From sequence record OR780565.1: DNA of 64,000 nt. One strand, given 5' to 3'. Position numbers and translations under genes: made by a program. The DNA comes from Escherichia phage DCP2. The notes below the pieces were generated by a model. That model was not told the DNA's origin and did no database searches. It was given only the letters and a program-made list of their open reading frames with translations. This document shows positions 4,498-50,932 of this stretch, in pieces (within the stretch, counting starts at the first letter, position 1; every line of letters starts with the position of its first letter).

Positions 4498-4502
4498 ATT
4501 CA

Positions 4503-14634: not shown

Positions 14635-14899
14635 AATTATGAAATATGTTAATCGTTCTATCGCGGCATTAGTATTAGCAGTATCTTTAGTAGGATGTAC
14701 TGATGCTGATAATGCAACCAAAGTTTTGTCTTCAAGCGGTTTTACTAATATTGAAATCACTGGATATAATTGGTTCGGTTGCTCTGAAAATGATTTCCAA
14801 CATACTGGATTTCGTGCTATTGGACCTACCGGGCAGAAAGTAGAAGGAACAGTATGTTCTGGTCTATTCTTCAAGGATTCGACTATCCGTTTTAAATAA
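14627..14899 (+). CDS. putative lipoprotein (90 aa, lipobox LVGC)
   Basis: Signal peptide IAALVLAVSLVGCTDA. Confidence 0.5.
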   Translation: MSEIMKYVNRSIAALVLAVSLVGCTDADNATKVLSSSGFTNIEITGYNWFGCSENDFQHTGFRAIGPTGQKVEGTVCSGLFFKDSTIRFK

Positions 14900-14916
14900 A
14901 AGGCCTTCGGGCCTTT
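14899..14916 (+). terminator. terminator-like hairpin AAAGGCC-TTCG-GGCCTTT
   Basis: GC stem with TTCG loop after ORF stop; T-run interrupted. Confidence 0.4.
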
Positions 14917-14965
14917 AGCTTTATGATTACTGGAGTATAATATTCCCGAAACCAAACGAGGATAA

Positions 14966-16786
14966 GTGATGATTAAGAATGAAATTAAAATTCTGAGCGA
15001 TATTGAACATATCAAAAAGCGTAGCGGCATGTACATTGGTTCTTCTGCTAATGAAATGCATGAGCGCTTTCTGTTTGGTAAATGGGAAAGTGTTCAGTAT
15101 GTACCTGGTCTTGTTAAGCTTATTGATGAAATTATCGATAACTCAGTAGATGAAGGTATTCGTACTAAGTTTAAATTCGCAAATAAAATTAATGTTACCA
15201 TTAAAAATAATCAGGTAACAGTTGAAGATAACGGTCGTGGTATTCCACAGGCGATGGTTAAAACACCTACCGGTGAAGAAATTCCTGGTCCTGTTGCTGC
15301 CTGGACTATTCCAAAAGCAGGTGGTAACTTTGGTGATGATAAAGAACGCGTCACCGGCGGTATGAACGGTGTTGGTTCTAGTTTAACTAACATTTTTTCT
15401 GTGATGTTTGTCGGTGAAACTGGCGACGGTCAAAATAATATTGTGGTTCGCTGCTCGAATGGCATGGAAAATAAATCATGGGAAGATATTCCTGGAAAAT
15501 GGAAAGGAACTCGCGTTACTTTCATTCCTGATTTTATGTCATTTGAAACTAATGAGCTATCTCAAGTTTATCTTGACATTACACTAGATCGTCTCCAGAC
15601 ACTTGCGGTAGTTTATCCTGATATTCAATTTACCTTTAATGGTAAAAAGGTTCAGGGTAATTTTAAGAAATATGCACGCCAATATGATGAACATGCTATT
15701 GTTCAAGAACAAGAAAATTGTTCTATTGCGGTTGGTCGTTCACCGGATGGTTTTCGTCAATTAACATACGTCAATAACATTCATACTAAGAATGGTGGCC
15801 ATCACATTGACTGTGTTATGGATGATATTTGTGAAGACCTTATTCCACAAATCAAACGTAAATTCAAAATTGATGTAACTAAAGCACGTGTTAAAGAATG
15901 TTTGACTATCGTTATGTTTGTCCGTGATATGAAAAACATGCGATTTGATTCTCAAACTAAAGAGCGTTTGACTTCTCCATTTGGTGAAATTCGTAGTCAT
16001 ATTCAGCTTGATGCTAAAAAGATTTCACGTGCTATTTTGAATAATGAAGCAATTTTAATGCCAATCATTGAAGCTGCTTTGGCTCGTAAATTGGCGGCAG
16101 AAAAAGCAGCAGAAACTAAAGCAGCTAAAAAGGCTTCTAAAGCTAAGGTTCATAAACATATTAAAGCGAATCTTTGTGGTAAAGATGCTGACACTACTCT
16201 TTTCTTGACTGAGGGTGATTCTGCTATTGGATATCTTATTGATGTTCGTGATAAAGAACTTCATGGTGGTTATCCATTGCGTGGTAAAGTTCTTAACAGT
16301 TGGGGTATGTCATATGCTGATATGCTTAAAAACAAAGAACTATTTGATATTTGCGCAATCACTGGATTAGTTCTTGGTGAAAAAGCTGAAAACTTGAATT
16401 ATCATAATATTGCAATTATGACCGATGCTGACCATGATGGTCTAGGAAGCATTTATCCTTCTCTGCTCGGATTTTTTAGTAATTGGCCAGAATTGTTTGA
16501 ACAAGGAAGAATTCGCTTTGTCAAAACTCCTGTAATCATCGCTCAGGTAGGTAAAAAACAAGAATGGTTTTATACAGTCGCTGAATATGAGAGTGCTAAA
16601 GATGCTCTACCTAAACATAGCATCCGTTATATTAAGGGACTTGGCTCTTTGGAAAAATCTGAATATCGCGAGATGATTCAAAACCCAGTATATGATGTTG
16701 TTAAACTTCCTGAGAACTGGAAAGAGCTTTTTGAAATGCTCATGGGAGATAATGCTGACCTTCGTAAAGAATGGATGAGCCAGTAG
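14966..16786 (+). CDS. 39: DNA topoisomerase II large subunit gp39, contiguous (606 aa)
   Basis: GyrB-like ATPase N-terminus (MIKNEIKILSDIEHIKKRSGMYIGS), TOPRIM C-terminal part; single ORF, no gene 60 split. Confidence 0.93.
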   Translation: MMIKNEIKILSDIEHIKKRSGMYIGSSANEMHERFLFGKWESVQYVPGLVKLIDEIIDNSVDEGIRTKFKFANKINVTIKNNQVTVEDNGRGIPQAMVKTPTGEEIPGPVAAWTIPKAGGNFGDDKERVTGGMNGVGSSLTNIFSVMFVGETGDGQNNIVVRCSNGMENKSWEDIPGKWKGTRVTFIPDFMSFETNELSQVYLDITLDRLQTLAVVYPDIQFTFNGKKVQGNFKKYARQYDEHAIVQEQENCSIAVGRSPDGFRQLTYVNNIHTKNGGHHIDCVMDDICEDLIPQIKRKFKIDVTKARVKECLTIVMFVRDMKNMRFDSQTKERLTSPFGEIRSHIQLDAKKISRAILNNEAILMPIIEAALARKLAAEKAAETKAAKKASKAKVHKHIKANLCGKDADTTLFLTEGDSAIGYLIDVRDKELHGGYPLRGKVLNSWGMSYADMLKNKELFDICAITGLVLGEKAENLNYHNIAIMTDADHDGLGSIYPSLLGFFSNWPELFEQGRIRFVKTPVIIAQVGKKQEWFYTVAEYESAKDALPKHSIRYIKGLGSLEKSEYREMIQNPVYDVVKLPENWKELFEMLMGDNADLRKEWMSQ

Positions 16787-19243: not shown

Positions 19244-20182
19244 ATGTACAATATTAAATGCCTGACCAAAAACGAACAAGCTGAAATTGTCAAACTGTAT
19301 TCAAGCGGTAATTATACCCAACAGGAATTGGCTGATTGGCAAGGTGTATCGGTTGACACAATCCGTCGTGTTTTGAAAAATGCTGAAGAAGCTGAGCGTT
19401 CCAAAGTTACCATTAGCGGTGACATTACAGTTGAAGTTAAGAGTGATGTAGCTATTGCTCCAGTTGCTAAATCTGACATTATTTGGAATGCATCTAAAAA
19501 ATTCATTTCAATTACTGTTGATGGCGTAACTTATAACGCAACTCCTAATACTCATTCAAACTTTCAGGAAATTCTTAACCTGCTTGTTGCAGATAAATTG
19601 GAAGAAGCGGCACAAAAAATTAATGTTCGTCGCGCCGTTGAAAAATATATTTCCGGTGATGTTCGAATTGAAGGTGGAAGCCTGTTCTATCAAAATATTG
19701 AATTGCGGTCTGGTTTAGTTGATCGTATTCTCGATTCGATGGAAAAAGGTGAAAACTTTGAATTTTATTTTCCGTTCTTGGAAAATCTGCTGGAAAACCC
19801 AAGCCAAAAAGCAGTATCTCGACTCTTTGATTTCTTGGTAGCAAACGATATTGAAATTACAGAAGACGGTTACTTCTATGCTTGGAAAGTAGTTCGCAGC
19901 AATTACTTTGACTGTCATTCAAATACTTTTGATAACAGCCCTGGTAAAGTAGTTAAAATGCCACGTACTCGTGTGAATGACGATGATACACAAACTTGTT
20001 CTCGCGGTCTGCATGTGTGTTCTAAATCTTATATTCGTCACTTTGGCAGTTCAACCAGCCGAGTTGTAAAAGTTAAAGTACATCCTCGCGATGTAGTATC
20101 AATTCCGATTGATTACAACGATGCTAAAATGCGTACCTGCCAATACGAAGTAATTGAAGACGTTACTGAACAATTTAAATAA
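19244..20182 (+). CDS. rIIB: rIIB protein (312 aa)
   Basis: 312 aa as in T4 rIIB; N-terminus MYNIKCLTKNEQAEIVKLY. Confidence 0.95.
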   Translation: MYNIKCLTKNEQAEIVKLYSSGNYTQQELADWQGVSVDTIRRVLKNAEEAERSKVTISGDITVEVKSDVAIAPVAKSDIIWNASKKFISITVDGVTYNATPNTHSNFQEILNLLVADKLEEAAQKINVRRAVEKYISGDVRIEGGSLFYQNIELRSGLVDRILDSMEKGENFEFYFPFLENLLENPSQKAVSRLFDFLVANDIEITEDGYFYAWKVVRSNYFDCHSNTFDNSPGKVVKMPRTRVNDDDTQTCSRGLHVCSKSYIRHFGSSTSRVVKVKVHPRDVVSIPIDYNDAKMRTCQYEVIEDVTEQFK

Positions 20183-28696: not shown

Positions 28697-29479
28697 TTAT
28701 ACTCTTGGACCATATATTGCTCCAACATTTTGCCATGTCGGTGTAGACCCTATGACGGCATAACCAGCAGCTCCGCCATCGTATTCATATCCTTGACCAC
28801 GAATATTACATCTACCTCCTGCGGAGCCAACTTCACCACCAGACCCGCCGTTGTAGATACCGTTCACAGACCCTGCGCCTGGCGAAGAAATAGTACCAGC
28901 AGTTGCTCCTGATTGCATATCAATAGATCCGCCCGGTGCGCCAAACGGACGACCGCCGCCACCGCCAAAGGTCAATCTCATTCGTGAAAAAGGAGAATAA
29001 TACCCGCCGCCGCCACCGCCGCCGCCGCCAGCAATAGCTCCGCCATTATTAATTCTTAGTCTCCCACCAATATCATTTTGAATACAATGACCCCCAGCTG
29101 AGCCAGGACTATTGCTACCGCCATTCCCGCCACGGCCATACATCGTTACACCATGTATGTTCAACTGAACATATTCATTCGGTGTATCTCCGTACATGAA
29201 GAATAAAGGAACATCTTTAGAATATGATACTAAATCTCCAGTGATATTAAACACTATAGGTGCACTACCTGCCTCAAAACATCTATCTCGGAACCATTGA
29301 CCATTGAAGTTATGGTCTGCTCCAAGCGTGTGAATAATTTCTCTTGAGCGACCTGCAAATTGACTCATCCAGCAAGGAACACCCAATCTTAATTGACCAG
29401 CCGCTTGACTCATCCATCGTTGTCCTGTTTCATTTACAGATGAACTTCCAATCCAACCGGGAACACCAACTACTGCCAT
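28697..29479 (-). CDS. 38: tail-fibre adhesin gp38, glycine-rich T2/T6 type
   Basis: ATG at 29479 (rc) with SD GGAG; poly-Gly motifs (GGGGGGGGG, GGGGG) separated by variable segments; ORF-track start 29491 is TTG. Confidence 0.8.
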
Positions 29480-45553: not shown

Positions 45554-45836
45554 ATACAAATCCGACTTTGATGTTAATATTCACCGTGGTACATTTTGGG
45601 GAAATTACGTCGGTAAAGATGCTGGCAGCCGGGAGGTTGCCATTGAATTATTCAAAAAAGATTTTATACGTCGAATTAAATCCGGAGAAATAACTAAAGC
45701 ACATTTAGAGCCTTTACGTGGAATGAGGCTAGGATGCACATGTAAACCAAAGCCGTGTCATGGTGATATAATAGCTCATATAGTTACCGATTGTTTAAAG
45801 ACGATTTTCAAGTTGAGGACTTATGCAATTAATTAA
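45507..45836 (+). CDS. hypothetical protein with C-terminal CxC...PCH motif (start uncertain)
   Basis: ORF track; [12 protein letters not shown] near C-terminus; overlaps neighbours. Confidence 0.45.
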
Positions 45837-48087
45837 TGTTATCAAAAGTAGTGGTGTTTCTCAGAGCTTTGACCCGCAAAAAATTATTAAAGTTTTATCT
45901 TGGGCAGCTGAGGGAACATCAGTAGATCCTTATGAATTATATGAAAATATTAAATCTTATCTCCGTGATGGAATGACAACTGATGATATTCAGACTATTG
46001 TCATTAAGGCTGCTGCGAATTCTATTTCGGTTGAAGAGCCTGATTATCAATATGTAGCTGCACGTTGTCTAATGTTCGCTCTTCGTAAGCATGTTTATGG
46101 GCAGTATGAACCGCGTTCATTTATTGACCATATTTCTTACTGTGTAAATGAAGGTAAATATGACCCTGAATTATTGTCAAAATATTCAGCAGAAGAAATT
46201 ACATTTTTAGAATCAAAAATTAAGCACGAGCGGGATATGGAATTTACTTATTCCGGGGCGATGCAATTAAAAGAAAAATATTTAGTTAAAGATAAAACCA
46301 CTGGTCAAATTTATGAAACTCCTCAGTTTGCATTTATGACTATTGGAATGGCATTGCATCAAGATGAACCTGTTGATAGATTAAAACATGTTATTCGTTT
46401 TTATGAAGCAGTATCTACTCGACAGATTTCATTACCAACTCCTATTATGGCTGGTTGCCGTACTCCAACTCGGCAGTTTAGTTCATGCGTTGTTATTGAG
46501 GCAGGTGATTCATTAAAGTCTATTAATAAGGCTTCTGCTTCAATTGTTGAATATATCTCCAAACGTGCTGGAATTGGTATTAACGTTGGTATGATTCGTG
46601 CCGAAGGTTCTAAGATTGGCATGGGTGAAGTGCGTCATACTGGTGTTATTCCTTTTTGGAAACATTTTCAGACTGCTGTTAAATCATGCTCACAGGGCGG
46701 AATTCGTGGCGGCGCTGCTACTGCTTATTATCCTATTTGGCATTTGGAAGTTGAAAATCTTCTCGTTTTGAAAAATAACAAAGGCGTAGAAGAAAACCGC
46801 ATTCGTCATATGGATTATGGTGTTCAACTGAATGATTTGATGATGGAACGATTCGGAAAGAACGATTACATTACTTTGTTCAGTCCACATGAAATGGGTG
46901 GCGAGCTTTATTATTCTTATTTTAAAGACCAAAACCGTTTCCGTGAATTATACGAAGCAGCAGAAAAAGACCCTAATATTCGTAAAAAGCGTATTAAAGC
47001 CCGTGAACTATTTGAATTGCTCATGACTGAACGTTCAGGAACCGCAAGGATTTATGTGCAGTTCATTGATAATACGAATAACTATACTCCGTTTATTCGT
47101 GAAAAGGCGCCTATTCGTCAGAGTAACTTGTGTTGTGAAATTGCTATTCCAACAAATGATGTGAATAGTCCTGATGCTGAAATTGGATTGTGTACTCTCT
47201 CTGCATTCGTACTAGATAATTTTGACTGGCAAGACCAAGATAAAATTAATGAATTGGCAGAAGTTCAAGTTCGTGCTCTTGATAATCTTTTGGATTACCA
47301 AGGATATCCAGTTCCTGAAGCAGAAAAAGCTAAAAAGCGTCGTAACCTCGGTGTAGGTGTTACTAACTATGCAGCTTGGCTGGCAAGTAACTTTGCTTCT
47401 TATGAAGATGCTAACGATTTAACACATGAACTATTTGAGAGATTACAGTATGGACTCATTAAAGCATCCATTAAACTCGCCAAAGAAAAAGGACCTTGCG
47501 AATATTATTCAGACACTCGTTGGTCTCGAGGCGAATTACCTATTGACTGGTACAATAAAAAGATTGACCAAATCGCAGCTCCAAAATACGTTTGTGACTG
47601 GTCGTCGCTGCGGGAAGACCTTAAGCTCTTTGGCATCCGTAATAGCACATTATCAGCACTTATGCCATGTGAGTCATCTTCCCAAGTTTCTAACAGTACA
47701 AATGGTATCGAGCCTCCACGTGGACCAGTCTCTGTTAAAGAATCAAAAGAGGGTTCCTTCAATCAAGTCGTGCCCAATATTGAACATAACATAGACCTCT
47801 ATGATTATACATGGAAATTAGCTAAGAAAGGTAATAAACCTTATCTTACGCAGGTAGCTATTATGCTGAAATGGGTATGTCAATCAGCTTCAGCGAATAC
47901 ATATTATGACCCACAGATTTTTCCAAAAGGAAAGGTTCCAATGTCAATAATGATTGATGACCTTTTGTATTTTTGGTATTTTGGCGGAAAAAATTTCTAT
48001 TATCATAATACCCGTGATGGTTCTGGTACTGATGATTATGAAATAGAAACTCCAAAAGCTGAAGATTGTTCATCCTGTAAATTATGA
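45823..48087 (+). CDS. nrdA: ribonucleotide reductase large subunit NrdA (754 aa)
   Basis: 754 aa as in T4 NrdA; ATP-cone N-terminus, class Ia RNR motifs. Confidence 0.95.
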   Translation: MQLINVIKSSGVSQSFDPQKIIKVLSWAAEGTSVDPYELYENIKSYLRDGMTTDDIQTIVIKAAANSISVEEPDYQYVAARCLMFALRKHVYGQYEPRSFIDHISYCVNEGKYDPELLSKYSAEEITFLESKIKHERDMEFTYSGAMQLKEKYLVKDKTTGQIYETPQFAFMTIGMALHQDEPVDRLKHVIRFYEAVSTRQISLPTPIMAGCRTPTRQFSSCVVIEAGDSLKSINKASASIVEYISKRAGIGINVGMIRAEGSKIGMGEVRHTGVIPFWKHFQTAVKSCSQGGIRGGAATAYYPIWHLEVENLLVLKNNKGVEENRIRHMDYGVQLNDLMMERFGKNDYITLFSPHEMGGELYYSYFKDQNRFRELYEAAEKDPNIRKKRIKARELFELLMTERSGTARIYVQFIDNTNNYTPFIREKAPIRQSNLCCEIAIPTNDVNSPDAEIGLCTLSAFVLDNFDWQDQDKINELAEVQVRALDNLLDYQGYPVPEAEKAKKRRNLGVGVTNYAAWLASNFASYEDANDLTHELFERLQYGLIKASIKLAKEKGPCEYYSDTRWSRGELPIDWYNKKIDQIAAPKYVCDWSSLREDLKLFGIRNSTLSALMPCESSSQVSNSTNGIEPPRGPVSVKESKEGSFNQVVPNIEHNIDLYDYTWKLAKKGNKPYLTQVAIMLKWVCQSASANTYYDPQIFPKGKVPMSIMIDDLLYFWYFGGKNFYYHNTRDGSGTDDYEIETPKAEDCSSCKL

Positions 48088-48138
48088 TATAATTTGACTC
48101 ATGGACGAGTCACTATCTATTAACTAAGTGGAAAATTT

Positions 48139-49317
48139 ATGAGCACAGTTTTTAATACAAATCCAGTTGATGTTTTAAAAGAACCTATGTTTTTTGGTTC
48201 AGGTCTTGGTATTGCGCGTTATGATATTCAACGTCATAAAGTTTTTGAAGATTTAACCGAAAAGCAGTTGTCATTTTTCTGGCGTCCTGAAGAAGTAAAC
48301 TTAATGATGGATGCTGCGCAATTTAATAAGCTTCCTCAGTATCAGCAAAATATTTTTACTAATAACCTGAAGTATCAATCACTTTTGGATAGCATTCAGG
48401 GTCGTGCGCCGTCTGCTGTACTTATGTCATTAATTTCAGACCCAAGCCTTGATACATGGGTTGCTACGTGGACTTTTAGTGAAACTATTCACAGCCGTTC
48501 ATATACACATATCATGCGAAATCTTTATACTGATCCATCGAAAGTATTTGATGAAATTGTATTAGATGAAGCTATTATGAAACGTGCTGAATCCATTGGA
48601 CGTTATTATGATGATGTTCTTAAGAAAACCCGTGAATGGGAAAATGCTAAAGAATTTGTAGAACTAGCTAAAGAATCTCCTGATGCTGATTTTCGTTTAA
48701 ATCGAGCTATTAAACAAGAAGCCGAAGCTAAACGAGCACTAATGAAATCTCTTTATCTTTGCCTTCATGTAATCAATGCATTGGAAGCTATTCGTTTTTA
48801 TGTATCTTTCGCATGTACCTTTAACTTCCATAAGAACATGGAAATCATGGAAGGTAATGCCAAGATTATGAAGTTCATTGCGCGTGATGAGCAGCTTCAC
48901 CTTAAAGGCACTCAATATATTATTCGTCAACTTCAACTTGGCACTGATGGTGATGAATGGGTTAAAATTGCTCAAGAGTGTGAACAAGAAGCAGTTGATA
49001 TTTTCATGGAAGTTAACCGCCAAGAAAAAGACTGGGCAGTTCATTTATTTAAAGATGGTGATGTTCCTGGATTAAATACAAATAGCATGTGGAGCTTTAT
49101 TGATTACTTAACTGTATCTCGTATGAAACAGTGCGGTCTTCCATGCCCAATTACTGATGCTCCGGTTAAACATCCGTATCCTTGGATTCGTGAATACCTT
49201 AATTCTGATAATGTTCAATCCGCGCCGCAAGAAGTAGAACTGTCATCTTACCTTGTAGCACAGATTGATAATGATGTTGATGATAAAGTTATGATGAGTT
49301 TTAAAAAATATTTTTAA
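48139..49317 (+). CDS. nrdB: ribonucleotide reductase small subunit NrdB, uninterrupted (392 aa)
   Basis: Di-iron ligands (E..H motifs), C-terminal Tyr; contiguous ORF. Confidence 0.95.
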   Translation: MSTVFNTNPVDVLKEPMFFGSGLGIARYDIQRHKVFEDLTEKQLSFFWRPEEVNLMMDAAQFNKLPQYQQNIFTNNLKYQSLLDSIQGRAPSAVLMSLISDPSLDTWVATWTFSETIHSRSYTHIMRNLYTDPSKVFDEIVLDEAIMKRAESIGRYYDDVLKKTREWENAKEFVELAKESPDADFRLNRAIKQEAEAKRALMKSLYLCLHVINALEAIRFYVSFACTFNFHKNMEIMEGNAKIMKFIARDEQLHLKGTQYIIRQLQLGTDGDEWVKIAQECEQEAVDIFMEVNRQEKDWAVHLFKDGDVPGLNTNSMWSFIDYLTVSRMKQCGLPCPITDAPVKHPYPWIREYLNSDNVQSAPQEVELSSYLVAQIDNDVDDKVMMSFKKYF

Positions 49318-49322
49318 GGAGT

Positions 49323-49336
49323 GGGCCGCAAGGCCC
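49323..49336 (+). promoter_or_regulatory. hairpin GGGCC-GCAA-GGCCC between the SD and the denA start codon
   Basis: SD AAGGAG 49316-49321, hairpin, then ATTTTATT and ATG 49345. Confidence 0.45.
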
Positions 49337-49344
49337 ATTTTATT

Positions 49345-50932
<1,588 letters not shown>

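Follow-up and report, generated by a model that had tools for sequence, protein, structure and literature searches.

A putative hairpin-bridged ribosome-binding site of the T4 gene 38 type at the nrdB-denA junction of Escherichia phage DCP2

In bacteriophage T4, the Shine-Dalgarno (SD) sequences of genes 38 and 25 lie unusually far from the AUG, and a structure that forms in between makes this over-long spacing functional: upon folding, the distance falls from 22 to 5 nucleotides (nt) in gene 38 and from 27 to 11 nt in gene 25, and mutations that destabilize the structure lower initiation (PMC3014915). The gene 25 site, which was confirmed by lacZ fusions and dimethyl sulfate (DMS) probing, is limited to close T-even phages (PMC3014915). 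Here, we analyze a stretch of 64,000 nt from Escherichia phage DCP2 (sequence record OR780565.1; hereafter the window), in which denA, the gene for endonuclease II (EndoII), follows nrdB, the gene for the small subunit of ribonucleotide reductase. A sequence-only reading of this DNA had proposed that a stable hairpin splits the denA ribosome-binding site in the manner described for the two T4 genes.

On balance, we take the nrdB-denA junction to be a likely hairpin-bridged, or split, translation initiation region of the gene 38 type, which in this lineage probably also serves as a partial terminator and which probably benefits from coupling to nrdB. What we observe directly is its anatomy, a covarying structure, a constrained folded spacing and a build nearly identical to that of the T4 gene 38 site. 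Comparison with related phages and with T4 supports the proposed interpretation as a whole, and it is from this comparison that we infer the functional part, namely that the hairpin raises initiation, that denA is coupled to nrdB and that transcripts terminate in part.

Anatomy of the nrdB-denA junction

The stop codon of nrdB opens the SD, a GC-rich tetraloop hairpin follows immediately, and a short U-rich spacer leads to the AUG (Table 1). Upon rereading the sequence, we found the stop codon, AAGGAG, hairpin, spacer and ATG exactly where the sequence-only reading had placed them. The gap between the end of the SD and ATG 49345 measures 23 nt, or 22 nt as aligned linear spacing; 27 nt lie between UAA and AUG, and denA is in the nrdB frame (30 nt from stop to start). 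The normal range of 4–13 nt from this ATG holds no other SD. In an anti-SD scan of positions -20 to -3, the best pairing is worth -3.0 kcal/mol (CGCAAGGC) and falls within the hairpin, compared with -5.5 to -9 kcal/mol for most genes of the window. The scan thus bears out the claim that the only strong SD is the one 23 nt upstream.

The hairpin proved to be as stable as had been supposed. Its core of 5 base pairs (bp) has a predicted energy of -11.5 kcal/mol and the 6-bp form, which adds the pair U49322-A49337, one of -12.2 kcal/mol. Folded with RNAfold in a 66-nt context, the segment has a z-score of -3.2, and none of 200 shuffled sequences folds as well. Formation of the hairpin also brings the SD into range, as proposed, to about 6–8 nt from the ATG, with a folded aligned spacing of 6 nt. 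Among the open reading frames (ORFs) of at least 50 amino acids on both strands of the window, denA alone displays the order SD, hairpin, start codon. The curated Rfam families gave no match to the junction at gathering score; the best, L20_leader, reached 23.1 bits vs 58.7, and the others were weaker.

This arrangement suggests how the denA start may be reached. The hairpin would absorb 14–16 of the 23 nt between UAAGGAG and the denA AUG; in the folded mRNA, the SD would then stand some 6–8 nt from the AUG, inside the working range of the 30S subunit. Because the stop codon lies within the SD, ribosomes that end nrdB would be released right on it, and coupling to nrdB is probably added in this way. 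A search of the final 750 nt of nrdB for a MotA-box or a late promoter gave none, and the gap between nrdB and denA leaves no room for a promoter, so that denA messages must run through the hairpin. In this Tequatrovirus lineage, the hairpin and its UUUUAUU tail probably act in addition as a partial intrinsic terminator or as a 3' stabilizer for nrdA-nrdB transcripts, and partial termination would hold expression of the nuclease low.

Conservation across Tevenvirinae and the start of denA

We gathered denA loci from IMG/VR, metagenomes and GenBank phages and obtained 29 distinct junction sequences with denA directly after nrdB, plus one more from metagenomes (L111). A single architecture is common to all of them: a stop codon within the SD, a hairpin, 6–10 nt and an ATG. 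The element occurs in at least eight genera (Tequatrovirus, Mosigvirus, Dhakavirus, Gelderlandvirus, Gaprivervirus, Winklervirus, Karamvirus and Roskildevirus) and also in unclassified Klebsiella and Serratia phages. The nrdB UAA opens UAAGG(A/G), with the UAAGG core retained in nearly all variants, and 0–4 nt separate AAGG from the stem. The stem itself consists of 4–7 Watson-Crick pairs (6 bp in 16 of the 29 junctions). It is capped by UUCG in 23 of them, by GCAA or GUAA in the T4 group, and by UUUG, UUAG and CUUGA in one each. The spacer keeps its length and not its U-richness.

A MAFFT alignment of the junctions analyzed with RNAalifold returns precisely the 6-bp helix, with both SD and spacer unpaired. 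Compensatory double changes are seen at four of the six helix pairs. The pair of alignment columns 17–32 takes five forms (AU 13, GC 4, UA 4, GU 2, CG 1), the adjacent pair 18–31 takes two (GC 16, AU 12) and pair 21–28 takes three (GC 20, CG 6, AU 2). The covariation score of 0.354 compares with 0.18 in shuffled alignments, none of 500 of which reaches the observed value, and with at most 0.22 when the pairing partners are slid.

The spacing is likewise constrained. Counted from the counterpart of the 3'-terminal base of UAAGGAGG, a convention that reportedly goes back to Chen et al. 1994, the aligned linear spacing of the 29 variants is 20–26 nt with a median of 22; upon folding, the median drops to 6 nt, and 25 of the variants lie at 5–8 nt. 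The pair L013 and L009 illustrates this constraint: relative to L009, L013 has two more stem pairs and 4 nt more of linear spacing, and the folded spacing of the two is equal. The distance from stop to ATG is 29–31 nt in most variants, and all three mod-3 classes are represented. This combination of varied frame and constrained length implies that the junction segment evolves as a structured non-coding RNA under a length constraint.

The comparison also bears on where denA begins. The original proposal had named a start codon elsewhere as a reason to abandon it, and the T4 records indeed use GTG 49321 (coding sequence at 137517..137951 in both AF158101.6 and NC_000866.4), as Dhakavirus WG01 (locus L130, 127–564) uses the equivalent in-frame ATG, giving long forms of 144–145 amino acids. 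If this were the true start, the hairpin would code for residues 1–8 (VGRKAHFI) of a 144-amino acid EndoII, and a split site would not exist. We find this scarcely credible, and conservation, frame and spacing led us to reject GTG 49321. It adjoins the SD with zero spacing; no more than 4 of the 27 variant groups have an in-frame start at -24, and the stop-to-ATG distances occupy all three frame classes. Moreover, changes in the segment compensate at the level of RNA and do not preserve amino acids, and all 18 of the aligned diverse homologues start at the downstream Met (49345). The active and crystallized enzyme is the 136-amino acid form; PDB 2WSH reads MKEIATEY directly after the tag, and the published residue numbers G49, R57, K76 and E118 are invariant columns when counted from ATG 49345.

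These comparisons favor ATG 49345 over GTG 49321 as the start of denA, and the T4 reference records and relatives such as WG01 probably annotate the gene eight codons too long. That the annotation used by the T4 community chose the GTG suggests that the split site at denA went unrecognized, and the over-long form will be perpetuated by gene callers for which an SD must lie close to the start. We also considered a NrdB-DenA fusion made by stop codon read-through or frameshifting and rejected it: relatives differ in the frame relation of the two genes, and UAUUUUUAA is neither conserved nor a canonical slippery site.

Alternative readings of the hairpin

Several observations weigh against a split site. 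We scanned the window and shuffled sequences for the bare pattern of an SD core, a hairpin, 4–11 nt and ATG or GTG, and found two matches in the window, both at the denA site, vs 2.55 in shuffles, which is no enrichment. Because the bare pattern is as frequent in shuffles, the single denA occurrence is not significant alone, and it is comparison that carries the argument. In several relatives no more than UAAGG is left, which makes a weak SD (-2.5 to -4.4 kcal/mol). GC/UUCG hairpins are common between T4-type genes, so that conservation of the hairpin by itself could mean mRNA stabilization. In L027/L079 and L124 (51% identity), nrdB and denA overlap in an ATGA with neither hairpin nor SD, showing that denA can rely on pure coupling. 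Masking of the SD in the unbound RNA ensemble, described below, could mean attenuation instead of activation. Finally, the accessible literature yielded no statement on the denA ribosome-binding site, no mutational or probing data for it and no map of T4 transcript 3' ends at this position; key older T4 literature lies outside it, and an earlier mention is possible. What marks the denA element as non-random is its placement at a real gene start and its conservation with covariation in relatives.

The overlapping lineages are of interest in their own right. L027, with L079, belongs to IMGVR_UViG_2974786931 and has its overlap at about nt 1480–1504; it resembles a clean deletion of about 27 nt from a T4-like junction, with AAAAAATACTT followed directly by ATGAAA. 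L124 is a contig of ERZ794946. Both lineages are possible natural controls for the role of the hairpin. In Aeromonas phages, an ATGA overlap, again with neither hairpin nor SD, joins denA to a different upstream ORF. Coupling by stop/start overlap (ATGA, TAATG) has in common with denA of the window the tight joining to the upstream ORF, whereas here the stop codon lies within the SD; neither overlap nor abutment of stop and start is present. With 27 nt between the two codons, a stable hairpin among them, simple overlap coupling does not apply in the window. The overlaps in other lineages imply that denA is habitually coupled to its upstream gene, and coupling to nrdB likely contributes to denA translation. 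Given the size of its footprint, a ribosome terminating at the nrdB stop codon would have melted the 5' arm of the stem.

Hairpins of similar make occur elsewhere in the window. Intercistronic GC tetraloop hairpins at 20180, 20409, 22857, 57965 and 61878 (+ strand) each precede an SD of their own, of the GAGGAAA type, and then an ATG, forming a recurrent module of stop codon, UUCG or UUUG hairpin without a U-tract, and (ac)uGAGGAAAa(u)u-ATG. A short GC stem and a stable tetraloop are common to the denA hairpin and to T4-type terminators and UUCG or GNRA hairpins, of which the window holds similar ones at these five positions and at 4502, 24660 and 57085. The denA hairpin differs from the other intercistronic hairpins in having the SD in front and the AUG 7–8 nt behind. 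The five hairpins of the recurrent module score as non-terminators and are probably barriers that serve RNA stability or processing. The order of hairpin and then SD is also seen upstream of denA in Krischvirus, where another gene precedes denA. Since the other hairpins precede their SD, the placement of the SD before the hairpin at denA is an exception, and it is a conserved one. A further UUCG hairpin (AAAGGCC-UUCG-GGCCUUU, 14884–14925) is followed 6 nt on by the ATG of a 5-codon ORF (ATG ATT ACT GGA GTA TAA), just upstream of a promoter-like TATAAT and a 605-amino acid gene at 14969; its 23.4 bits against a model of the denA junctions are probably coincidental.

The hairpin could be primarily an intrinsic terminator or 3' stabilizer for nrdA-nrdB mRNA, in which case AAGGAG would be no bridged SD and denA would be expressed at a low level via read-through, reinitiation or SD-independent initiation. 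As a measure of termination we used the score d in the d'Aubenton-Carafa form, supplied with ViennaRNA energies, for which the zero threshold is approximate. The denA hairpin (UGGGCCGCAAGGCCCA, then UUUUAUU) has nT = 3.94 and d = +24.7, similar to three obvious terminators of the window (+16, +36 and +45), and the non-terminator intercistronic hairpins of the window range from -5 to -57. Also in favor of this reading, one GenBank record labels the hairpin a 'putative transcriptional terminator', UUCG-type intercistronic hairpins are frequent in the genome, denA is coupled by ATGA overlap without an SD in L027, L124 and the Aeromonas phages, and T4 mobE, close by, is documented to contain a terminator that is weak but functional (PMC2790892). 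The sequence-only reading had likewise noted that the hairpin and its T-rich tail look like an nrdB terminator. The score bears this out for this phage, but the character is lineage-specific: d exceeds zero in only 7 of 25 other junction variants, and L032/L033 lack the U-tract (d = -38) and retain both hairpin and geometry. Termination also leaves unexplained why UAAGG is kept just 5' of the stem and why the stem stays 6–10 nt from the ATG across genera, and hairpins that are only barriers have their SD placed behind them. Thus, terminator function is plausible in the T4 group, the split geometry and not the terminator is what is kept across genera, and a primarily terminating hairpin appears unlikely to us.

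It is less probable still that the structure is chiefly inhibitory, with the SD distant and partly paired, so that free ribosomes would initiate poorly and denA translation would depend on ribosomes that unfold the region as they complete nrdB. Such strict coupling would suit the stop codon within the SD, and EndoII is toxic. Work on the enzyme required catalytic mutants or leader tags (PMC2764454), in line with toxicity. The unbound RNA of the window prefers an extended 10-bp helix (-16.4 kcal/mol vs -12.2 kcal/mol for the core), in which GGAG pairs weakly with UUUU (G.U pairs, -4.2 kcal/mol) and the probability of being unpaired is 0.14 for the SD and 0.26 for the AUG. The three outer pairs (columns 14–16 with 33–35, which join GGAG to the U-tail in the T4 group) show many unpaired cells in the alignment and no compensatory support; we rejected the 10-bp helix as the conserved structure because, although predicted for the window sequence, its outer pairs are not conserved and RNAalifold omits them. 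The extension contributes 4.2 kcal/mol, which is less than SD:anti-SD pairing provides (-7.2 to -8.5 kcal/mol), so that the SD should stay usable with some attenuation possible, and the same build at gene 38 enhances initiation (PMC3014915). A very improbable reading makes the GGAG at 49318–49321 mainly a target of the RegB endoribonuclease, whose cut would silence denA translation once the early period is over. RegB is described as cleaving certain early T4 mRNAs at a GGAG within their SD (PMC2988021; PMC1702504) and as leaving some GGAG sites uncut (PMC1702504). GGAG is found in a minority of the junction variants, most of which have GGAU, GGAA, GGAC, GGU or GGC. RegB cutting would at most supplement the architecture in the T4 group and would not account for it.

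The locus and its relation to T4 genes 38 and 25

The window is a segment of a Tequatrovirus (T4-type) genome, and positions 48900–49800 share 97–99% identity with hundreds of T4-like phages. The genes of this region run nrdA, nrdB, denA, rnlA (Table 1). According to the record annotation, the T4 counterpart also holds mobE, nrdB.1 and the I-TevIII intron, all of which are missing from the window phage.

Table 1. Coordinates of the nrdA-rnlA region and of the elements of the nrdB-denA junction in the window.
Feature	Position	Strand	Basis
nrdA	45823–48087		
nrdB (ribonucleotide reductase small subunit), 392 amino acids, intronless	48139–49317	+	ORF; annotation of 97–99% identical phages
nrdB stop codon, TAA/UAA	49315–49317	+	
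SD UAAGGAG, first three bases = nrdB UAA	49315–49321	+	sequence; 16S 3'-end duplex -7.2 to -8.5 kcal/mol
AAGGAG	49316–49321	+	
In-frame GTG, denA start in T4 records (144 amino acids)	49321–49323	+	435-nt coding sequence in AF158101.6 and NC_000866.4
Hairpin UGGGCC-GCAA-GGCCCA, 6-bp stem, GNRA tetraloop at 49328–49331	49322–49337	+	folding, RNAalifold
Core hairpin after U 49322: GGGCC, GCAA, GGCCC	49323–49327, 49328–49331, 49332–49336	+	
Segment AUUUUAUU between core 5-bp hairpin and ATG	49337–49344	+	
Spacer UUUUAUU between 6-bp hairpin and AUG; also U-tract of possible intrinsic terminator	49338–49344	+	
denA (endonuclease II, EndoII, GIY-YIG), 136 amino acids, ATG 49345 start	49345–49755	+	ORF, homologue alignment
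rnlA	starts 49808		

Upstream, the 51-nt spacer between nrdA and nrdB (48088–48138) holds the hairpin TGACTC-ATGGAC-GAGTCA (48095–48112), which the scan flagged as terminator-like, and the SD of nrdB itself is weak (AAGUGGAA, -3.3 kcal/mol). Downstream, a MotA-box-like TGCTT (49756–49760) directly follows the denA stop codon, with TACTAT (49776–49781) 15 nt further. From its sequence, the pair looks like a T4 middle promoter for rnlA, and with such a candidate promoter after denA, rnlA need not rely on read-through of the denA-proximal hairpin. The denA-rnlA junction is an insertion hotspot among relatives: a homing endonuclease sits there in Serratia phage 92A1 and Karamvirus KMB17, and Erwinia phage FBB1 has two small ORFs. 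In Mosigvirus 348Ecol098PP, nrdB is split by an intron-associated endonuclease. These insertions were observed at loci L047, 1214–1822; L048, 1208–1822; L046, 1214–1617; and L039, 1–135.

As positive controls for the comparison, we read the T4 37–38 and 26–25 junctions from NC_000866; gene 38 of the window was unsuitable, having a normal site. This gene (28697–29479, minus strand, start 29479) encodes a 260-amino acid T2-type adhesin, as opposed to the 183-amino acid assembly factor of T4. Its ribosome-binding site consists of a GGGGC-UUUG-GCCCC hairpin, GGAGA and ATG, and the classic split SD of gene 38 is missing here.

The T4 37–38 junction reads gcaUAAGGAG-AGGGGC-UUCG-GCCCUU-CUAAAU-AUG. 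Applied to its 6-bp stem, which contains a G.U pair, our spacing rule gives a folded spacing of 5, which is the published value. Gene 38 and denA are alike throughout: the upstream UAA opens UAAGGAG, a GC-rich tetraloop hairpin follows immediately, a 6–8 nt A/U-rich spacer leads to the AUG, and the spacing is 22–23 nt when linear and 5–6 nt when folded and aligned. They differ in the loop, which is GCAA at denA of the window and UUCG at gene 38 as in most denA relatives, and in the U-tract, which is better at denA (d = +24.7 vs -24.8). The denA gene, which follows nrdB, is prereplicative, and gene 38 is expressed late and belongs to the tail fibre; the gene 38 site has been validated experimentally, and that of denA is known from sequence comparison. 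A covariance model of the denA junctions matches the T4 gene 38 site over its full length at 25.8 bits, a score that does not discriminate, since a plain UUCG hairpin with neither SD nor AUG reaches 28.3 bits, and we rejected the model as a test of membership.

The 26–25 junction, whose split SD is reportedly to be credited to Nivinskas 1999 and to Malys and Nivinskas 2009, shares with denA a distant SD (GAGG in gene 25), a stem-loop in between, the involvement of the end of the upstream gene and a phylogenetically conserved structure. It differs in that both the SD and an AU-rich hairpin (CAAAGAG-UUCU-CUUUGAG) lie within the coding sequence of gene 26, where stop and start overlap as UAAUG. 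By contrast, the denA element is intercistronic and GC-rich and occurs in at least eight Tevenvirinae genera, compared with the close T-even phages for which the gene 25 arrangement is reported. The likeness to T4 split sites that the sequence-only reading had drawn thus holds closely for gene 38 and only loosely for gene 25.

A broader idea, which we advance tentatively and regard as possible but short of probable, is that the cassette of stop codon within the SD, tetraloop hairpin and AUG serves as a reusable ribosome hand-off module of Tevenvirinae, with the terminator or stabilizer hairpin tolerated between coupled genes. The 30S subunit released at UAA would remain bound via the UAA-containing SD, and the hairpin would refold behind it and bring the AUG to the P site. 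Lineages with the ATGA overlap (L027, L124) would then represent the hairpin-free state, the nrdB-denA and T4 37–38 junctions would be two instances of one solution, and the denA instance would predate the split site of gene 25 and occur more widely.

The range of the denA element extends over at least eight genera whose hosts include Escherichia, Salmonella, Klebsiella, Enterobacter, Serratia and Erwinia, and, if the site is confirmed, its natural covariation would supply a ready series of 'mutants' with which to examine the way a hairpin lying between SD and AUG is accommodated by the 30S subunit. The arrangement also suggests how expression of a nuclease that degrades host DNA may be tied to both transcription and translation of nrdB. 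If confirmed, denA would join genes 38 and 25 as the third split-SD site of T4-type phages, with by far the widest conservation of the three. Because the build of the 26–25 junction differs and that of the 37–38 junction matches, we place denA with gene 38; it is likely a third example of the split-SD class, using a known trick and no new mechanism.

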